A DNA stretch of 57,427 bases from a virus (Duplodnaviria; Heunggongvirae; Uroviricota; Caudoviricetes), in the IMG/VR virus record IMGVR_UViG_2778261297_000008; one strand, 5' to 3'. The translations under genes were made by a program, and so were the position numbers. Position 1 is the stretch's first letter. Each line of letters starts with the position of its first letter. Below are positions 3,155-55,665 of this stretch, in pieces. The notes beneath the pieces are model-generated. The model searched no databases, was not told the DNA's origin, and worked only from the letters and a program-made list of their open reading frames with translations.

Positions 3155-3516
3155 TATGCTCCAGCCTCCGGTGCTTTTGGCATTACTGCCCAGTGAGTGA
3201 TATTGACGTTTTCAAGGTCCCCGACCTGAAATGTCCATTGCCATTCTCCGGTTTCTTTTTGTCCCCAGGTGTACCAGAGAGAACGCCAGCCAATTAGCCA
3301 GCCTTCTCCGTTAGCATCGAATAACAAAACACTTTCATTTGCTGGTGGCAGTTCAGTTGACACTGGTATTACTTTGTTTTCCTGTGCTGCACATTTAGCT
3401 TCAAGCGCATCGAATTTACGCACTAGGTATTCAGCATCTGTTTTATTTACTTTCAGATCTCGCGGTACACATCTCCCACGAAGAAACCCTTCCATTTCGA
3501 AAACATTCATGCGCAT
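3154..3516 (-). CDS. DUF551-like phage protein
   Basis: 120-aa ORF; Trp-rich C-terminus (WLIGWRSLWYTWGQKETGEWQW) resembles the DUF551 family common in enterobacterial prophages. Confidence 0.55.
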   Translation of the reverse strand: MRMNVFEMEGFLRGRCVPRDLKVNKTDAEYLVRKFDALEAKCAAQENKVIPVSTELPPANESVLLFDANGEGWLIGWRSLWYTWGQKETGEWQWTFQVGDLENVNITHWAVMPKAPEAGA

Positions 3517-4043
3517 TTGCGTAACTCCGATAACTCGTTAAAGCGTTCCATAAACATCCCGTAGGCATGGCCCGGTGCCAGTGGAATCACGTTGAACATC
3601 TCTGTTGCCGGGATACCTTCCAGTACAGGCCAGAAAGAGCCATCATCAAGCCCGAGATCGCGGCGTTCGGTTGCCAGCATGATGAGATCGGCATATTTCA
3701 CGGGCGTACTCATAACTGGGGGTAACCCGTATTTCTCACGGATTACGGCGTCTATTTTTTCTTCCATTTGTTTATAGTCAGGAAGAAGGCGTTTCAGTGG
3801 TGCGGGAATGTCCTGGCAATACGCTTCTGTTGCATCATGCATTAACGCTTCAAAAGCAAATTCCTGCGGCACCAGCTGGCTGCAAAGAACCGCATGTTGG
3901 GCGACGCTGTAGAAGTGCGAAAGATGACCGGCAAAGCGACAGATATTTGAAAGGGAAACCGCGATATCGTTAATATCGATGTCGTCTTTATTTATCCTGT
4001 CATAATAAAAATGCTTCCCGGAAAAAGTTTTAATAAATGACAT
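3507..4043 (-). CDS. HD-domain phosphohydrolase, YfdR-like 5'-deoxynucleotidase
   Basis: HD motif context (QHAVLCS...HDATEAY); ORF-track start at 4070 is GTG, the ATG at 4043 has GGAG upstream. Confidence 0.65.
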   Translation of the reverse strand: MSFIKTFSGKHFYYDRINKDDIDINDIAVSLSNICRFAGHLSHFYSVAQHAVLCSQLVPQEFAFEALMHDATEAYCQDIPAPLKRLLPDYKQMEEKIDAVIREKYGLPPVMSTPVKYADLIMLATERRDLGLDDGSFWPVLEGIPATEMFNVIPLAPGHAYGMFMERFNELSELRKCA

Positions 4044-4170
4044 TTTGTTCTCCACGTATATGCGCTGCACCGCGCTGAATTCTGGTAAAAAAAATCCCTC
4101 ACCATCCGGCGATTATTGAGTAAATTACGTTTCCATAAATGCCCCCGCAGGGGCATTTGCAGTAATGAAA

Positions 4171-4995
4171 TCAGGCGATGAAAGTACCAATAAAGGTTTC
4201 TACTTTGCTGTCCTTGAATTTCTCAACAAGCAGATCACGAAATTCGTTAGCCATTTCTTCCTGCACCGCCTCCAGCTGAATAATGCGCAGAACCAGTACA
4301 GGACGATCGCCAGTGATAATACTGAGGCGTAATTTAAACGGACGTTCTTTCAGACCTTCAAACGGAACGCATTTAAATTCAAATGCCACTGGCATAATGT
4401 CTTTGGTCTTCGCTTCGACAGACTCCATCAGGGAGCGTTTGCCGCTGAAGTCATTATCTTCAAAATCAGCGGTCTGGTTTGCTTCAATCGTGATTTTACG
4501 GACAGCCGCAGCCGCTTTTGTTGCCTGAATAGCGTCACCATTAGCATCAAAGCCCACAAGATAGTCGGCCCAGTCTTCAATCCATTCTGCTAGTGACTTC
4601 TGGGAGTTACGCTCGCCGTTAACAGACAACAGAGCAGAGAACGGTGCTGTCTTTTTCAGTTTGAGTGTGGCGGTGTTATCTGCGTGACCTGGTTCATCAA
4701 TAGTACCCAGGTTAAGCACACTGACGGCACGCATATTATCAGCATCGATAAAGCAGCGGGTGCCTTCATCTGCAAGATCTTTAGAATAACGGGTAAAGTC
4801 ATCGATGCTGGCAGTGGAAAGCGCACCACGGAAACGGAAGCGATTTAAATTAAATTTTTCCAGATCATGAATGCGGAAATTCTCAGGCAATGCCACAGCA
4901 TCGGCACCAATCTTACTGATAATTTCATTAACACCCTGAGCAGAAATAAGGGCATGGATTTGATTAATTGCGGTTGCGTCTAAGTTCTGAGACAT
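4171..4995 (-). CDS. YfdQ-like (DUF2303) prophage protein
   Basis: 274-aa ORF, SD GTGAGGA upstream; recalled similarity to CPS-53 YfdQ. Confidence 0.65.
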
Positions 4996-5060
4996 AATAA
5001 GTCCTCACTATATAAAGATATTCAGTGATGAGATAAATAATCAGTTAATTAAGAACGATA

Positions 5061-5423
5061 TTAATGACCTGCTGCGCGAAGTTTTCCGTCAGGTTCACCG
5101 GCAAGAGTCAGTAATTGTCCCTGGTCTTCCTGCAGAATAGTCAGGCGACCACCGCGATTGACATACATCGGTGTTTCGGTGGTGTCTTCTTCAGAAATTT
5201 TCCCGCGGTTAGTCGGGCGAACATATGAGAGTTTGTGTTTGATTTTCACACGGTTCTCATCAAACGGTTCGATTTCCAGGTTGAGTGAGACCTTACCTTT
5301 GGTTTTCGTGTTCATCACACCGGAAGCGACTTCACTGAGAACTGCGCCGATTTTGGTTTCAAATACGCCGCCGTCCAGCTCCCCGATAAATGCCTGCACA
5401 TCAGTACTGCGTTCGCTAGCCAT
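5061..5423 (-). CDS. YfdP-like small prophage protein (start at MASERSTD... with SD GGAG)
   Basis: ORF-track frame 5061-5654; the upstream extension overlaps a structured non-coding region, so the internal ATG at 5423 is preferred. Confidence 0.5.
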   Translation of the reverse strand: MASERSTDVQAFIGELDGGVFETKIGAVLSEVASGVMNTKTKGKVSLNLEIEPFDENRVKIKHKLSYVRPTNRGKISEEDTTETPMYVNRGGRLTILQEDQGQLLTLAGEPDGKLRAAGH

Positions 5424-5557
5424 TTTGCTGCTCCTCATCATATCGACCCTGTAAGGTCGGTTAGTTTCTCCACAAAACAGAGAAGAACACCTGCGGTGGC
5501 AGCCGCCCGGATGGATTGGGTTATGAGCCCGTCGTCCGGTGATGCTCTTCTCTGTTT

Positions 5558-5606
5558 TGTAAAAAGAGCGGTACCAGCCGGAAGCAAGGGTACAAACTGG
5601 TACCGC
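5558..5606 (-). terminator. Candidate intrinsic terminator or attenuator in the early-left leader (10-bp GC stem plus U-run on the minus strand)
   Basis: Perfect inverted repeat GCGGTACCAG (5568-5577) / CTGGTACCGC (5597-5606); on the minus strand it is followed by TCTTTTTTACA. Confidence 0.4.
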
Positions 5607-6074
5607 CAAAGCAGTGGCTGTTGTGGTGGGGTTGTCACTCAGGCGTATGGTCAACCTGACAATCCGGTGTCCTCAACGGGGAAAGAGTAACCCCGCCATA
5701 CTTACCGCCGCGCCATTTCGCGGATTACCACAACGCTGAGAGCACTTAGCCAGTTACGGCACCACACTTTGTCGCGGCTCCATAAATGCCCTCATCGTTG
5801 CACCCTGGTCTCTTCCCAGGCGTCAAACCGAATCGCCACGCTGGTTAGGCGTCTTATCAGCATCATCATTGACTTGCACATTCCGGCTACCTGGTTTGTT
5901 TGCCCGAGCAAGGAGTGGATTGTCCCCTTTAACGTCCCCAGACCGCTAACGACGCATGTGCCATACGCCGTGTTACAACCAAATTTTGTTAGTACCTTGT
6001 TTGTCTGGAAAGAAAGATAAAATGAAGTTGCGCATTATGCAAGTGTTTTTGTTGCGAGATATGCAATTTAAAGG

Positions 6075-6101
6075 GTAATGAAAAGCCACCTTTGGGTGGC
6101 T
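6075..6101 (-). terminator. Candidate terminator downstream of the cI-like repressor
   Basis: Hairpin AGCCACC-TTTG-GGTGGCT (6084-6101) followed on the minus strand by a T-rich tract. Confidence 0.4.
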
Positions 6102-6121
6102 AATTGATGAGGAGGTAAGGG

Positions 6122-6814
6122 TTAATTGTGTCGCTTAAGGGTTTGTGACTGGCTGATTAAGACCTTTCCAAAGACCATAAACCGGTGTTCATTTTCGCTG
6201 GTAATTCCCCATTCACGGTAAATCTGGTTATCAGAAATCACCAGTAGTTTGTCAGGTATCATTTGCAGTCGTTTGACATAAATTTTATCATCAAAACCAA
6301 ATACATAGATACCATCTCCATCAAACTGATTGATACTGACATCAACGAAGATGAGATCTCCTGGCTCAATGGTTGGACACATACTGTCCCCACGAACGTT
6401 GATAACTTTAATGTGATTGGCTGGCCGTCCGCCAAACATCGATACAGCATTATCAGTTCTGTATTCAATGGCATGAATCACATCAATGACATCACCGCCC
6501 TGGATAAGGCCATTTCCCGCACTGGCACTGACATCCAGCATTTCAATACGGAATACATCCTTCACCTGCGCAACATCCTCACTAATACTGTTTTTACATA
6601 CAGTATTACTTTTGAAGTCTGAGGTAAAGAGATCAGCAATATCAACACCTAAGCTCTTGGCAATATTACTCAGGGCTTGTTCAGTGAATTGTTTCTGCTT
6701 ACCTGTTTCCAGGCGTGAGATATTCGCCGCATCCACTCCTATTGCTTCAGCGAGATCGGCGATTTTCATGTTCTTCGCCTGGCGAAGTTGTCTGACTCGT
6801 TTTCCTATGTTCAT
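6122..6814 (-). CDS. CI-like phage repressor (N-terminal HTH + C-terminal S24 LexA-like peptidase domain)
   Basis: 230 aa; N-terminal HTH (IADLAEAIGVDAANISRLETGK), C-terminal S24-like region (NVRGDSMCPTIEPGDLIFVD...KRL); divergent from the cro-like gene. Confidence 0.9.
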   Translation of the reverse strand: MNIGKRVRQLRQAKNMKIADLAEAIGVDAANISRLETGKQKQFTEQALSNIAKSLGVDIADLFTSDFKSNTVCKNSISEDVAQVKDVFRIEMLDVSASAGNGLIQGGDVIDVIHAIEYRTDNAVSMFGGRPANHIKVINVRGDSMCPTIEPGDLIFVDVSINQFDGDGIYVFGFDDKIYVKRLQMIPDKLLVISDNQIYREWGITSENEHRFMVFGKVLISQSQTLKRHN

Positions 6815-6911
6815 GCGTTTATTACATTTCTTTATTGCGCGTTAAGCAAATCAACTTGCGCAAAATATTTGCGTGAAATAATATGCTCATCACGCAATAT
6901 GTGGAGGTCAT
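6815..6911. promoter_or_regulatory. Immunity-region operator/promoter interval between divergent cI-like and cro-like genes
   Basis: 97-bp divergent intergenic region with repeated TTGCGC half-sites and the near-palindrome CGCAAAATATTTGCG. Confidence 0.6.
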
Positions 6912-7172
6912 ATGCAATCACCATTACGGAATGTGCGTAAGGCGCACGGATTTACTTTGCAGCATGTTGCTGCTGGCGTTCAGGTCAATCCAGCGACGCT
7001 GAGTCGTATTGAAAGACTGGAACAAATTCCATCTATCGATCTTGCAGAACGTCTGGCCAATTTTTTTAAGGGTGAAATCAGCGAAATGCAGATTCTTTAT
7101 CCGGCACGTTTTCAATCTAGCCAAAACCAGAATGGGTTTAAACCACAGGAACAGGAGGTAAGCCGTGGGTAA
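6912..7172 (+). CDS. Cro-like HTH regulator
   Basis: 86 aa, HTH (FTLQHVAAGVQVNPATLSRIER), SD GGAGGT upstream, divergent from the repressor. Confidence 0.8.
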   Translation: MQSPLRNVRKAHGFTLQHVAAGVQVNPATLSRIERLEQIPSIDLAERLANFFKGEISEMQILYPARFQSSQNQNGFKPQEQEVSRG

Positions 7173-8077: not shown

Positions 8078-9038
8078 ATTAACCGGCTATGTATGGGATG
8101 GTTGCGCTGCGTCAGGCATGAAATTATCCAGCGTGGCAATTATGGCCCGCCTGGCTGATTTCAGTAATGACGAAGGTGTGTGCTGGCCATCAATTGAAAC
8201 TATTGCCCGTCAGATTGGCGCGGGGATGAGTACCGTCAGAACGGCTATCGCACGGCTGGAAGCAGAAGGCTGGTTAACGCGTAAGGCGCGTCGCCAGGGT
8301 AACCGCAATGCGTCGAATGTTTATCAGCTTAACGTTGCGAAGCTTCAGGCAGCGGCATTTTCTCAACTGTCAGATTCTGACCCGTCAAAATCTGACGCAT
8401 CAAAATCTGACCCGTCAAAATCTGACGCATCAAAATCTGACCCGTCAAAATTTGATGCGTCGAAATCTGGCAAAAAAGCGGGTTTTCACCCGTCAGAATC
8501 TGGCGGGGATCCGTCAGTAAAATCAAAACATGATCCGTCAGATAAAAAACCTTCTCGTCCGGACGCTTCGCAACCGGACACGCAGACGGCTGAACAGGAT
8601 TTTTTAACTCGCCATCCTGATGCGGTTGTATTCAGCCCTAAAAAGCGCCAGTGGGGAACGCAGGATGATTTGACCTGCGCACAGTGGCTCTGGAAAAAAA
8701 TCATTGCCCTGTACGAGCAGGCCGCCGAATGTGACGGCGAGGTGGTTCGTCCCAAAGAACCGAACTGGACAGCATGGGCAAACGAAATTCGCCTGATGTG
8801 TGTGCAGGATGGTCGTACTCACAAACAAATCTGCGAGATGTACAGCCGCGTCAGCCGCGATCCGTTCTGGTGCCGTAACGTGCTCAGCCCGTCGAAGTTG
8901 CGGGAAAAATGGGATGAGCTTTCCCTGCGCTTATCGCCGTCCGTCAGCACGCAAACAGAAAAACGTGAAGACCCGTACTTCAAAGCCAGTTACGACAACG
9001 TGGACTACAGCCAGATCCCGGCAGGATTCAGGGGGTGA
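8067..9038 (+). CDS. Phage replication initiator / replisome organiser (N-terminal winged helix; internal ori iterons)
   Basis: 323 aa; N-terminal HTH (IETIARQIGAGMSTVRTAIARLEAEGWL); internal DPSKSDASKS peptide repeats encoded by tandem 15-bp DNA repeats. Confidence 0.8.
   Translation: MSTKLTGYVWDGCAASGMKLSSVAIMARLADFSNDEGVCWPSIETIARQIGAGMSTVRTAIARLEAEGWLTRKARRQGNRNASNVYQLNVAKLQAAAFSQLSDSDPSKSDASKSDPSKSDASKSDPSKFDASKSGKKAGFHPSESGGDPSVKSKHDPSDKKPSRPDASQPDTQTAEQDFLTRHPDAVVFSPKKRQWGTQDDLTCAQWLWKKIIALYEQAAECDGEVVRPKEPNWTAWANEIRLMCVQDGRTHKQICEMYSRVSRDPFWCRNVLSPSKLREKWDELSLRLSPSVSTQTEKREDPYFKASYDNVDYSQIPAGFRG
8369..8473. repeat. Seven tandem 15-bp iterons (GTCAAAATCTGACSC-like), candidate phage origin inside the replication gene
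   Basis: Direct tandem repeats read in the sequence, with degenerate copies to ~8550; analogous to lambda ori inside gene O. Confidence 0.6.
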
Positions 9039-9040
9039 TC

Positions 9041-9529
9041 ATGAGTCTTTTGAATGACGTTCAGAAATTCATTGAAGCCCATCCGGGCTGTACTTCCGGA
9101 GACATTGCAGATGCTTTTGCTGGTTACTCACGGCAGCGCGTTCTGCAGTCAGCAAGCAAGTTACGTCAGAGTGGGCGTGTGGCTCACCGTTGTGAAGGAG
9201 ATACACGCAGACATTTCCCGCGCCTGACTGAGAGAGCGCAGGAGCCGGAACCACAATCGGTTCGTGAAACCAGACCTGTGCGCAATTTCTATGTCGGCAC
9301 TAACGACCCCCGGGTGATTTTGTGCCTGACCCGCCAGGCTGAAGAACTGGAGTCCAGGGGCTTATTCCGTCGAGCTGCAACGGTGTGGATGGCGGCATTC
9401 CGTGAAAGCCACTCCCAGCCAGAACGAAACAATTTTCTGGCGCATCGTGAGCGGTGCTTACGGAAAAGCAGCAAGCGCGCTGCATCGGGTGAAGAGTGGT
9501 ATCTGTCAGGGAATTACGTGGGGGCTTAA
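9041..9529 (+). CDS. PerC/Pch-like (ANR family) transcriptional regulator homologue
   Basis: C-terminal region EELESRGLFRRAATVWMAAF...RERCL resembles the PerC family; ORF-track start 9035 is GTG, ATG at 9041 has an SD. Confidence 0.5.
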   Translation: MSLLNDVQKFIEAHPGCTSGDIADAFAGYSRQRVLQSASKLRQSGRVAHRCEGDTRRHFPRLTERAQEPEPQSVRETRPVRNFYVGTNDPRVILCLTRQAEELESRGLFRRAATVWMAAFRESHSQPERNNFLAHRERCLRKSSKRAASGEEWYLSGNYVGA

Positions 9530-10182
9530 TGAGTAATAAATATTGCCAGGCGCTGGTGGAGCTGCGGAACAAACCAGCCCATGAACTGAAGGAAGTGGGC
9601 GATCAGTGGCGCACGCCGGACAACATTTTCTGGGGAATTAACACCCTGTTTGGCCCGTTTGTTCTGGATCTGTTTACTGATGGTGATAACGCCAAATGTG
9701 CCGCGTATTACACGGCGGAAGACAACGCGCTGGCGCATGACTGGTCAGAACGTCTTGCGGAGCTTAACGGTGCTGCCTTTGGTAATCCCCCGTACAGCCG
9801 CGCCAGTCAGCATGAGGGGCAATACATCACCGGCATGCGTTACATCATGAAACATGCCAGTGCTATGCGTGATAAAGGCGGGCGCTATGTTTTCCTGATC
9901 AAAGCTGCCACCAGCGAAGTGTGGTGGCCGGAAGATGCAGATCATATTGCTTTTATTCGCGGGCGTATCGGTTTTGAACTGCCTGCCTGGTTTATCCCGA
10001 AGGATGAGAAGCAGGTGCCGACAGGAGCTTTCTTCGCTGGTGCTATTGCTGTTTTCGACAAGACCTGGAAGGGACCGGCAATCAGCTACATCGGGCGCGA
10101 TGAACTTGAGGCATGTGGTGAGGCCTTTCTGGCGCAGGTTCGCCAGCAGGCAGAAAAACTGGTCAGGGAGATGGTGGCATGA
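9529..10182 (+). CDS. Phage Dam-family DNA N6-adenine methyltransferase
   Basis: NPPY motif (FGNPPYSR); start ATG overlaps upstream stop. Confidence 0.8.
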   Translation: MSNKYCQALVELRNKPAHELKEVGDQWRTPDNIFWGINTLFGPFVLDLFTDGDNAKCAAYYTAEDNALAHDWSERLAELNGAAFGNPPYSRASQHEGQYITGMRYIMKHASAMRDKGGRYVFLIKAATSEVWWPEDADHIAFIRGRIGFELPAWFIPKDEKQVPTGAFFAGAIAVFDKTWKGPAISYIGRDELEACGEAFLAQVRQQAEKLVREMVA

Positions 10183-10505
10183 CGACGTTAACTCAATGCC
10201 AGCAGCAGGTGCTGGATATGCTGATTTCTTATCAGAAAGAACGTGGCTTCCCGCCAACCAATCAGGAGGTGGCAACCATGCTGGGATACCGTTCGGTGAA
10301 TGCAGCGGTGGAGCATCTTCGCGCACTGGAGAAAAAAGGCGTCATCACGATAAAGCGTGGTGTGGCCCGGGGGATAACGCTTCATACCGCGGTCAAGGAC
10401 GACGACAGCGAGGCGGTCGGGATTATCCGCTCACTGCTTGCCGGTGAGGAAAACGCCAGGCTGCGTGCAGCCCACTGGTTACATGAGAGGGGTCTGAAAG
10501 TATGA
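10179..10505 (+). CDS. LexA-like N-terminal DNA-binding domain protein (no peptidase domain)
   Basis: 108 aa; LTQCQQQVLDMLISYQKERGFPPTNQEVATMLGYRSVNAAVEHLRALEKKGVI closely parallels the LexA winged-helix DNA-binding domain; no S24 domain follows. Confidence 0.7.
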   Translation: MTTLTQCQQQVLDMLISYQKERGFPPTNQEVATMLGYRSVNAAVEHLRALEKKGVITIKRGVARGITLHTAVKDDDSEAVGIIRSLLAGEENARLRAAHWLHERGLKV

Positions 10506-12705: not shown

Positions 12706-12722
12706 TTTTGTGGAGAAAGTTG

Positions 12723-13085
12723 ATGCGTGATATTCAGATGGTTCTGGATCGTTGGGGTGCATGGGCGGCGAGTGATAGTTCTGGGGTAGACTATTCGCCT
12801 ATAGCTGCTGGGTTTAAAGGGCTTCTTCCCTATACAAGCAAAACACGTCAGGCTTGTTCAGATAGTGATGCATTAATTATTGAAGGTTGTCTTGCTCGTC
12901 TAAAGCAAAAAAGACCTGAAGAACACTCGCTTCTTGTTGCCCATTACCTATACGGTATCTCTAAAAGAAAGCTCGCTAAAGCTCGCAAAAAGGATGAGAA
13001 AATAATACGCATTGAGATACAGATGGCTGAGGGATTTATAGAAGGTTGTCTAGCTATTCTAAATGTTAGCTTAGATATGGATTAA
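12723..13085 (+). CDS. Late-gene antiterminator Q-like protein
   Basis: MRDIQMVLDRWGAWAA... matches the Q antiterminator family N-terminus; SD GGAGAAAG before ATG 12723. Confidence 0.8.
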   Translation: MRDIQMVLDRWGAWAASDSSGVDYSPIAAGFKGLLPYTSKTRQACSDSDALIIEGCLARLKQKRPEEHSLLVAHYLYGISKRKLAKARKKDEKIIRIEIQMAEGFIEGCLAILNVSLDMD

Positions 13086-41789: not shown

Positions 41790-42373
41790 TGGCATTCAGA
41801 ATGAGTGAACAACCACGGACCATAAAAATTTATAATCTGCTGGTCGGAACTAATGAATTTATTGGTGAAGGTGACGCATATATTCCGCCTCATACAGGTC
41901 TGCCAGCAAACAGTACCGATATTGCACCGCCAGATATTCCGGCAGGCTTCGTGGCTGTTTTCAACAGTGATGAGGCATCGTGGCATCTCGTTGAAGATCA
42001 TCGGGGAAAAACCGTCTATGACGTGGCTTCCGGCGACGCGTTATTTATTTCTGAACTCGGTCCGTTACCGGAAAATGTTACCTGGTTATCGCCGGGAGGG
42101 GAATATCAGAAGTGGAACGGCACAGCCTGGGTGAAGGATACGGAAGCAGAAAAACTGTTCCGGATCCGGGAGGCGGAAGAAACAAAAAACAGCCTGATGC
42201 AGGTAGCCAGTGAGCATATTGCGCCGCTTCAGGATGCTGCAGATCTGGAAATTGCAACGGAGGAAGAAACCTCGTTGCTGGAAGCCTGGAAGAAGTATCG
42301 GGTGTTGCTGAACCGTGTTAATACAACAACTGCACCGGATATTGAGTGGCCTGCTGTCCCTGTTATGGAGTAA
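41789..42373 (+). CDS. tfa: Tail fibre assembly protein
   Basis: 194 aa, same length and position as lambda Tfa; start overlaps stf stop. Confidence 0.9.
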
Positions 42374-55395: not shown

Positions 55396-55665
55396 AAATA
55401 TTTCTTAGGGTCATTCAAATAATTTCCCTTCCAATAAACACATATGCTGCACATTTTTACACTACTAATCCTGCACAAATGCTTTAGGAAAACACACTGA
55501 GTACACAGGAATACACAATACGTACACAGATTCACAACGGCAAATGTAGGGCAGGACATGTAAAGTAGGCCCACCGTAAACGGTGCTTCTACTTTACCTT
55601 CTCTTATTAGCAGCTGGGCTGCTCAACGGAGTCCTGCTCTGCGAGGCTGATCGGCTACCGCCTGT

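Follow-up and report, generated by a model that had tools for sequence, protein, structure and literature searches.

The stretch of DNA analysed here, referred to below as the window, comprises 57,427 nucleotides (nt) of IMG/VR virus record IMGVR_UViG_2778261297_000008 (Caudoviricetes) and carries a lambdoid prophage in which positions 5424-6121 lie between a cI-like repressor gene and the first gene of the early-left operon. This region comprises the left operator and promoter (OL/pL) and, after them, an untranslated leader of ~580 nt; the lambdoid prophage is without N and of the SfV/mEp460/cdtI type. We propose that the leader is an array of non-coding RNAs that is transcribed from pL and processed by RNase III, and that a stem-loop of the type found at the end of the small RNA DicF serves both as the 3′ terminus of a small RNA and as an attenuator of early-left transcription, a reading that we regard as probable rather than secure. 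An initial annotation had described 5424-6121 as a structured leader without coding capacity, lying after the cI-like gene, and this description holds, as the fold of the whole leader has an energy z-score of −4.8 and its helices covary. What that annotation missed is the mosaic make-up of the leader, the largest part of which is a widespread RNA motif shared with P1 and Uetakevirus-type phages. The elements on which the argument rests are, in the order in which they would be transcribed:

5791-5972, minus strand: module A, a conserved pseudoknotted RNA motif of ~180 nt with five helices
5970-5950, minus strand: helix P1 of module A
5945-5938 with 5894-5884, minus strand: helix P2 of module A
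5852-5849 with 5841-5838, minus strand: helix P4 of module A
5846-5843 with 5829-5826, minus strand: pseudoknot of module A
5820-5816 with 5808-5804, minus strand: helix P5 of module A, loop GAAGAGA
5728-5802, minus strand: long hairpin P6, GCAAC-GAUG-AGGGCAUU ... AGUGCUCU-CAGC-GUUGU, with a variable loop
5620-5734, minus strand: domain B, a degenerate element resembling a transfer RNA (tRNA), 115 nt, closed by GUUGUGGU (5734-5727) and ACCACAAC (5627-5620)
5561-5619, minus strand: DicF/STnc100-type small RNA, with a 12-nt 5′ part AGCCACUGCUUU, an 11-base-pair (bp) stem 5607-5597 with 5577-5567, and U5 at 5565-5561
5472-5560, minus strand: module D, a second long hairpin with a 20-bp stem around two conserved inner hairpins, found by repeat search, folding and comparison

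Judged by sequence comparison, the leader is a mosaic whose modules have separate relatives. Positions 5424-5609 resemble the 'ymfH' region of prophage e14 and phage SfII, 5628-5734 have their counterpart in the K-12 DNA immediately upstream of DicF in prophage Qin, and 5728-5990 are similar to intergenic sequence found in podophages of the phiV10/TL-2011b type and in phages and plasmids of the P1 type. Near-full-length copies (at least 80% of the leader at high identity) are present in ~1000 of 5426 complete E. coli genomes, and also in phages mEp460, cdtI, 2H10 and Ayreon and in many Stx2-converting phages. Over the parts that align, the leaders of mEp460, cdtI and an Stx2c phage show 89-99% identity to that of the window. 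Rfam 15 returned nothing in the leader, either with the window at gathering thresholds or with positions 5000-7000 at expectation values (E) up to 10.

The strongest evidence for a conserved RNA comes from module A. Its loci were gathered by exact-match patterns, which biases the set toward conserved cores, and the covariance model was run on the retrieved loci. In an alignment (A3) of 64 sequences less than 96% identical, taken from 112 distinct cores, 96.3% of the helix cells are paired, compared with 26-47% when the partners are slid, and 14 of the 29 pairs show changes on both sides. The alignment contains 151 compensatory cells, shuffled versions contain 40 ± 10, and none of 500 shuffles was as good, so that the comparison across relatives suggested by the initial annotation finds helices that maintain pairing through compensatory changes. 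About 8% of the paired cells are G-U, and the fold therefore fits a minus-strand transcript only, which argues against an element acting at the DNA level. The core is invariant in places (AUGGCACAUG, GGUAGCCGGAAUGUGCAAG, CACCA, GGCGAU, GGUGUGAC and GGAAGAG) and variable elsewhere; a possible second pseudoknot, GCACAU (5961-5956) with AUGUGC (5881-5876), is invariant and hence beyond covariation testing. The covariance model built from A3 (R1) finds one copy in the window at 141 bits and one copy in 89 of 90 related loci, with no match in the Qin, SfII, e14 or HK022 loci. The exception, locus L164, carries two tandem same-strand copies at 3987-4154 and 4794-4959.

Exact-pattern scanning located module A in at least 120 viral contigs and in 21 stretches of species-representative genomes, 20 of them from Enterobacteriaceae, with Kosakonia, Citrobacter, Klebsiella, Phytobacter, Kluyvera, Enterobacter, Erwinia, Escherichia, Pseudescherichia, Scandinavium and Superficieibacter as host genera. 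Its main home is the start of pL transcripts: among the 113 module A loci with an upstream open reading frame (ORF) on the same strand, at least 71 have a cI-like gene directly upstream, and in several lineages (L137, L140, L158, L170, L198 and L217) the first helix begins within ~10 nt of the predicted −10 element. Two other settings recur. In phage P1, the CCA of tRNA-Ile is immediately followed by module A, which lies ahead of ban in the middle of an operon, and in Uetakevirus-type phages the motif belongs to a unit between the terminase and portal genes in the order promoter, hairpin, module A, hairpin, tRNA-Arg, small hairpin and DicF-type terminator, with a coding gene also found past the terminators. 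The P1 copy (NC_005856, 71010-71194; locus L128, 1513-1701) is a full copy of 131 bits in the unannotated trnI-ban spacer, and the sequence just past it (UUUUCUGGUGAUGAC) resembles the 5′ seed of DicF. A full-text literature search with the module A core sequence gave no relevant match, the only papers returned being unrelated ones on C. elegans, the SfIV genome paper contains nothing on the leader, and a literature search found no published description of module A, of the seed variant in the window or of the shared tRNA-array grammar, which does not prove its absence.

Module A is followed by the long hairpin P6, whose consensus is CAAC-N4-AGAGCAYU ... variable loop ... AGUGCUCU-N4-GUUG and whose predicted fold of −35.4 kcal/mol corresponds to a z-score of −3.9. 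The duplex is formed in 47 of 49 distinct relatives, with 97.6% of cells paired and double changes in 7 of 17 pairs. Qin has a homologous long hairpin upstream of its tRNA-like domain. In Qin, RNase III generates a 190-nt DicF species by making its 5′ end, and the RNA homologous to domain B plus terminator accumulates as species of 190 nt and 53 nt (10.1101/2023.04.14.536235). Counting 190 nt back from the DicF 3′ end leads to the 3′ strand of the Qin hairpin homologous to P6, and it is this homology with Qin that makes a processing model reasonable for the window.

A second long hairpin, module D, contains the perfect 14-bp inverted repeat (5473-5486 / 5546-5559) that had been noticed initially and that sits inside a perfect 15-bp core (5472-5486 / 5546-5560). 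The complete repeat arms (5472-5496 / 5536-5560) are 25 nt long and 84% complementary, and as RNA they form a 20-bp stem, G-U pairs included, between 5560-5541 and 5491-5472. Its fold of −51 kcal/mol has a z-score of −7.8, with none of 200 shuffles as stable, and both the stem and the inner hairpins keep their pairing through changes in e14, L140, L029 and L226. Module D ends ~50 nt before the first early-left start codon. It belongs to the same hairpin family as P6 and is a candidate RNase III site.

Between P6 and the terminator lies domain B, which is 93.5% identical over 107 nt to the Qin DNA immediately 5′ of DicF. Its fold is cloverleaf-like, with three inner arms within a closing helix that has counterparts in Qin (GUUGUGGC/GCUGCAAC) and mEp460 (GUUGUGGUGA/UCACCACAAC), and compensatory changes are seen in Qin, L148 and L203. 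Phages of the phiV10 type carry a real tRNA-Arg(UCU) in the same position, with the homology of the window extending to its first bases, and a tRNA-Arg(UCU) occupies this slot, after module A, in 29 distinct loci. In L226 the Rfam tRNA model gives the corresponding element 39.9 bits, and a DicF match below threshold comes after it, whereas neither ARAGORN nor Rfam RF00005 finds a tRNA in the leader of the window. On the basis of the identity to Qin, the cloverleaf-like fold and the tRNAs at the same position in relatives, we interpret domain B as a tRNA-like element that has degenerated. The leader recalls phage tRNA clusters in that module A borders a tRNA exactly (P1 trnI) and P6 ends at the first base of the phiV10-type tRNA-Arg; it differs from them in that domain B of the window has retained no more than an acceptor-like helix and some arm-like hairpins.

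DicF is among the bacterial small RNAs that have been known longest, and STnc100 is an RNA widespread in prophages; that prophages contain DicF-like sequences is known in general terms. The terminator-like hairpin that the initial annotation placed on the minus strand has arms (5568-5577 / 5597-5606) of 10 nt that are 100% complementary. Its full stem includes one G-U pair (5607/5567), encloses a 19-nt loop and is followed by a C and U5; a simple terminator scan missed the 5567-5607 hairpin solely through its 8-nt loop limit. Alignment with Qin, mEp460, SfII and e14 identifies the hairpin as the counterpart of the DicF terminator, the shared parts being the arm UUGGCGGUAYCAGUUU and the U tract, and this hairpin and that of module D are both conserved in relatives. 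At least 120 loci with a DicF-type terminator hairpin were found in a scan of viral contigs. The parts that precede the hairpin on its 5′ side are of three main types, namely DicF proper, the type of the window (AGCCACUGCUUU) and the SfII/e14 type (UUUAUGCUGUGUGUAGUCCU), while a wider collection of DicF-type terminators revealed more seeds and compensatory variation at stem positions 6-11. A seed sequence, GCUGUGUGUAGUCUU, stands directly before DicF-type terminators in many loci (for example L131, L138, L149, L158 and L175) and is conserved across several genera, which suggests a conserved target. Three explanations had been offered for the leader, namely put-like antitermination, a small RNA, or antitermination by another factor, and of these the small RNA is the sole one backed by homology, through the DicF/STnc100-group terminator and the Qin-like 107 nt upstream of it.

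Like DicF (RF00039), the small RNA of the window belongs to a repressor-controlled early-left operon of a lambdoid prophage and is preceded by a conserved upstream domain; it also has a 3′ stem-loop and U tract that share the GGCGGUAYCAG arm, and a long hairpin homologous to the one cut by RNase III. Unlike DicF, it has AGCCACUGC where DicF has the 5′ seed UUUCUGGUGACG and an AU-rich site for RNase E, its loop differs, and the upstream region differs in that Qin has the coding genes ydfABC and is without module A. STnc100 (RF02076) and PasD are ~200-nt prophage RNAs in which a multi-branch domain closed by UGGUGA/UCACCA is followed by a terminator hairpin. The window likewise has a multi-branch domain with a helix of the UGGUG/CACCA type (GUUGUGGU/ACCACAAC) and then a terminator, and the 'domain + terminator' units of SfII and e14, which give sub-threshold matches to the STnc100 model (39.5 and 29.2 bits), share the terminator and module D with it. 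However, the interior of domain B differs in the window, where the model is unmatched, and most of the STnc100 and PasD copies described are from late regions, close to Q or stx. A single conserved terminator hairpin with swappable 5′ seeds is also a feature of the AgvB/AsxR small RNAs, but their models are unmatched in the window and their genes, which have promoters of their own, are situated in the late region, downstream of PR′. The CA-rich 5′ part had brought an AgvB-type anti-small RNA (RF02702) into consideration, and this was rejected as no model match was found and AgvB genes are in the late region; PasB, considered on account of an IS009 RNA in the window, is located among structural genes and not at the leader. 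The sequence CACAACA at 5620-5626 (minus strand), within the small-RNA region, equals the GcvB target consensus reported for AgvB and may be a weak lead to a GcvB sponge; since it doubles as one strand of the helix that closes the tRNA-like domain, it may be present for structural reasons.

A role like that of DicF against ftsZ is not indicated. The duplex between the window RNA and the ftsZ start region has a calculated energy of −27.5 kcal/mol, equalled by 90% of shuffled targets in a crude calculation that ignores intramolecular structure. In the control, DicF gave −38.5 kcal/mol with ftsZ and 2.7% of shuffles were as good.

Around the leader, which is predicted to be transcribed from pL, lie the following elements:

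6122-6814, minus strand: cI-like repressor gene, helix-turn-helix (HTH) and S24 peptidase domains (Pfam Peptidase_S24, 6.5e-19; HTH_3/HTH_26)
6084-6101, minus strand: intrinsic terminator hairpin directly 3′ of the repressor gene (terminator scan: 7-bp stem, five G-C pairs, U-rich tail)
6028-6042 and 6052-6066: two OL operator sites, TTGC-N7-GCAA (operator motif matches)
6014-6042, minus strand: predicted pL promoter, −35 TTGCAT at 6042-6037, 17-nt spacer, −10 TATCTT at 6019-6014, start near 6006
5421-5461, minus strand: 3′ end of the leader, with a small hairpin (5459-5444), Shine-Dalgarno sequence GAGGAG (5436-5431) and early-left start codon (5423-5421), from sequence, fold and ORF list
5061-5423, minus strand: first early-left gene, 120 amino acids, PHROG 204 (a family of no known function)

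The region is flanked by cI-like and Cro-like genes and by operators, and since the first early-left gene starts at 5423 it covers OL/pL and the ~580-nt leader. The motif TTGC-N7-GCAA has four matches in the 57-kb window, three of which cluster at OL and at the right operator (OR), where the site is 6835-6849. In phage SfII, the site homologous to the 6084-6101 hairpin is annotated as a terminator. The predicted pL promoter, as read from the sequence, overlaps the OL operators and is directed leftward. It scored below threshold in a consensus promoter scan, and we infer its position from the sequence reading, backed by an identical −10 TATCTT at the equivalent location in the relatives L148, L158 and L198.

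We propose that when the repressor leaves OL, polymerase would start near 6006 and transcribe leftward, producing first module A as a ~180-nt pseudoknotted RNA and then the P6 hairpin, the degenerate tRNA-like domain and the DicF/STnc100-type stem-loop with its U tract. Most transcripts would stop at this stem-loop, which would thereby supply the 3′ end of the small RNA and attenuate the early-left genes. By homology with the Qin dicBF operon, an RNase III cut in P6 would yield module A and a ~170-nt 'tRNA-like + terminator' RNA, possibly trimmed further. Polymerases that read through would reach module D, where cleavage would part the small RNA from the mRNA. Partial read-through, like any trans-acting role of the products, is something that we infer.

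Several points weigh against this proposal. The single-stranded 5′ part in the window is only 12 nt long and is without ftsZ complementarity. The DicF and STnc100 covariance models are unmatched in the window (5000-7000, E up to 10), while the same DicF search finds Qin DicF at 76.7 bits. The AU-rich stretch with the DicF RNase E site is deleted, so that a short product of the 53-nt type may not be made. Domain B taken alone has an energy z-score of −0.7, which is not significant. The bases GUUGU (5734-5730) are shared by P6 and the closing helix of domain B as alternative, mutually exclusive pairings, and on the modelled folds P6 and domain B cannot both be complete. The 11-bp, G+C-rich terminator must be passed for early-left expression, and the proposal does not account for sufficient passage. 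In addition, the promoter position, the nuclease cuts and the stable products are predictions.

The passage of polymerase beyond the terminator would be accounted for if module A were a cis-acting processive antiterminator RNA, like put of phage HK022 in function though much larger, that replaces N: the nascent RNA would bind its own polymerase and carry it past the DicF-type and later terminators into the early-left genes. We consider this unlikely. In lambda a small, arginine-rich N gene comes first after pL, with a boxA/boxB leader, and the window has neither. In agreement with the initial annotation, Pfam gave no N-like match among the tested ORFs on either side of the leader or through the rightward (pR) operon up to Q, where the only antiterminator found in this set is the Q-type protein (12708-13085), and the leader contains no conserved ORF. 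The first early-left gene shows no N-like match and no arginine-rich motif. The transcribed strand of the leader has no match to boxA (YGCUCUU(U)A), the nearest boxA-like sequence being GCUCUCA (5741-5735) inside hairpin P6. As a separate observation, L202 (~3340-3400) and L198 have, after module A, a hairpin (AAGCGCCCAUAGGACGCUU) and then a boxA that matches the ribosomal RNA (rRNA) operon type perfectly (UGCUCUUUAACAA), and thus some members of the leader family carry a canonical Nus-factor antitermination signal.

The put RNA of HK022 has two stems and a length of ~73 nt, and it occurs at pL as well as at pR (PMC9378689). Like put, module A is a structured RNA shortly after pL in a lambdoid phage without N and without a canonical boxA, and a strong intrinsic terminator lies farther on, between pL and the first gene. 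Roughly two thirds of its loci lie directly downstream of a repressor gene, several lineages start the first helix as near to the predicted −10 as putL does (PMC9378689), the large number of its unpaired bases that are invariant suggests contact with a protein or a tertiary contact, and the Uetakevirus-type units also have a gene to express past their terminators. There is, moreover, a short resemblance of P1 to the base of put stem I (ACGGCG ... CAUGCGUCG ... AGCG). However, a comparison with the HK022 immunity region, putL and putR yielded this short resemblance alone and no R1 match. Membership of the put family, as had been suggested initially, is not borne out, since module A is a ~180-nt motif of different architecture (five helices including a pseudoknot), is single-copy and never forms a pL/pR pair, and is unmatched in HK022 DNA. 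It also occurs in the tRNA units of P1 and Uetakevirus-type phages, the P1 copy lying mid-operon behind a tRNA, while SfII, e14 and Qin share the terminator type, and SfII and e14 also module D, without having module A. Finally, most lineages flank module A with hairpins of the family cut by RNase III in Qin, which a released RNA fits better.

We think it improbable that the leader, or at least domain B and the terminator, is a relic of a phage tRNA/small RNA cluster that now serves as terminator or spacer only and yields no trans-acting RNA. Such a relic would fit a domain B that has a degraded tRNA shape recognised by no tRNA model, a seed region that is shortened relative to DicF and is without ftsZ complementarity, and a mosaic region whose modules have been swapped between phages. 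It fits poorly with the ~1000 of 5426 complete E. coli genomes that keep at least 80% of the exact leader at high identity, and with helices that are upheld by compensatory changes rather than decaying. The homologous Qin RNA, moreover, accumulates as distinct 190-nt and 53-nt species (10.1101/2023.04.14.536235).

The mutually exclusive pairings of 5734-5730, together with the 5′ leader position and a fold that is complex, contains a pseudoknot and has invariant bases at its junctions, would also suit a sensor, in which module A (riboswitch-like or protein-binding) steers GUUGU between P6 and domain B and so controls processing or read-through. This we hold to be very improbable: the terminator lies ~230 nt downstream of the motif with two folded domains between, the motif is overlapped by no expression platform, its contexts (before tRNA genes and in the P1 ban operon) have no shared metabolic theme, and the neighbouring genes give no clue to a ligand.

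That the leader encodes an overlooked N-like or other small protein is scarcely credible, for although seven ORFs of 38-83 amino acids overlap it in the ORF list, some phage records annotate hypothetical proteins here and two of the ORFs match PHROG families (3651 and 33599), each of the seven is interrupted by stops or split across frames in relatives at 50-80% identity (tblastn), as expected from the earlier statement that no convincing ORF lies in 5424-6121, the variation fits minus-strand RNA helices including G-U pairs, there is no arginine-rich motif of the N type and no Pfam match, and the only family matches are to those PHROG families, which are without known function and whose ORFs here break in relatives. 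The 103-amino-acid gene ymfH of the e14 prophage of E. coli K-12 (L005, 2502-2813) lies wholly on the counterparts of module D, the DicF-type terminator and an STnc100-like domain, and is probably not a protein gene.

The remaining features of the prophage accord with a lambdoid layout:

1369-1444: tRNA-Thr, beside which the lambdoid prophage is integrated
1459-2622: integrase gene of the prophage
4171-4995: DUF2303/YfdQ-like gene, after the first early-left gene
6912-7172: Cro-like gene, facing the cI-like repressor gene and followed by a CII-like gene (Pfam)
12708-13085: Q-type late antiterminator gene

The pR operon also encodes a protein with a PerC-like activator domain (9035-9529) and a small protein with a LexA DNA-binding domain and without a peptidase domain (10179-10505). 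Remote from the leader, Rfam detects an IS009 RNA (227 bits, 42132-42330) and a traJ-II RNA (87 bits, 55549-55648), the latter hinting that the right end of the window may pass from the prophage into DNA of a conjugative element.

A broader possibility, which we offer tentatively and as more doubtful than the processed array itself, is that module A represents a new class of phage RNA that acts directly on host machinery, either as a large cis antiterminator taking the place of N at the pL of many prophages of enterobacteria or as a released, protein-binding RNA. In the released form, the very first early-left product could, for instance, act as a decoy that binds a nuclease or defence factor of the host. 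By analogy with rRNA operons, it could be co-packaged with tRNAs or tRNA-like elements and RNAs of the DicF type, with RNase III sites as the punctuation of the array.

These results suggest that DicF and STnc100 are pieces of one modular, tRNA-derived RNA array that is common to lambdoid, P1-type and Uetakevirus-type phages and in which long hairpins, one of them with a mapped RNase III cut in Qin, would serve as punctuation. Module A would be the largest and best-conserved member of this array, and it heads the early-left transcript of N-less lambdoid prophages. Prophages of this kind with the leader are present in about one fifth of complete E. coli genomes, and they include Stx2-converting phages. 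The analysis also flags probable mis-annotations, among them K-12 ymfH and the hypothetical proteins and PHROG families built on leader DNA. With its defined structure, module A is an experimentally testable new RNA.

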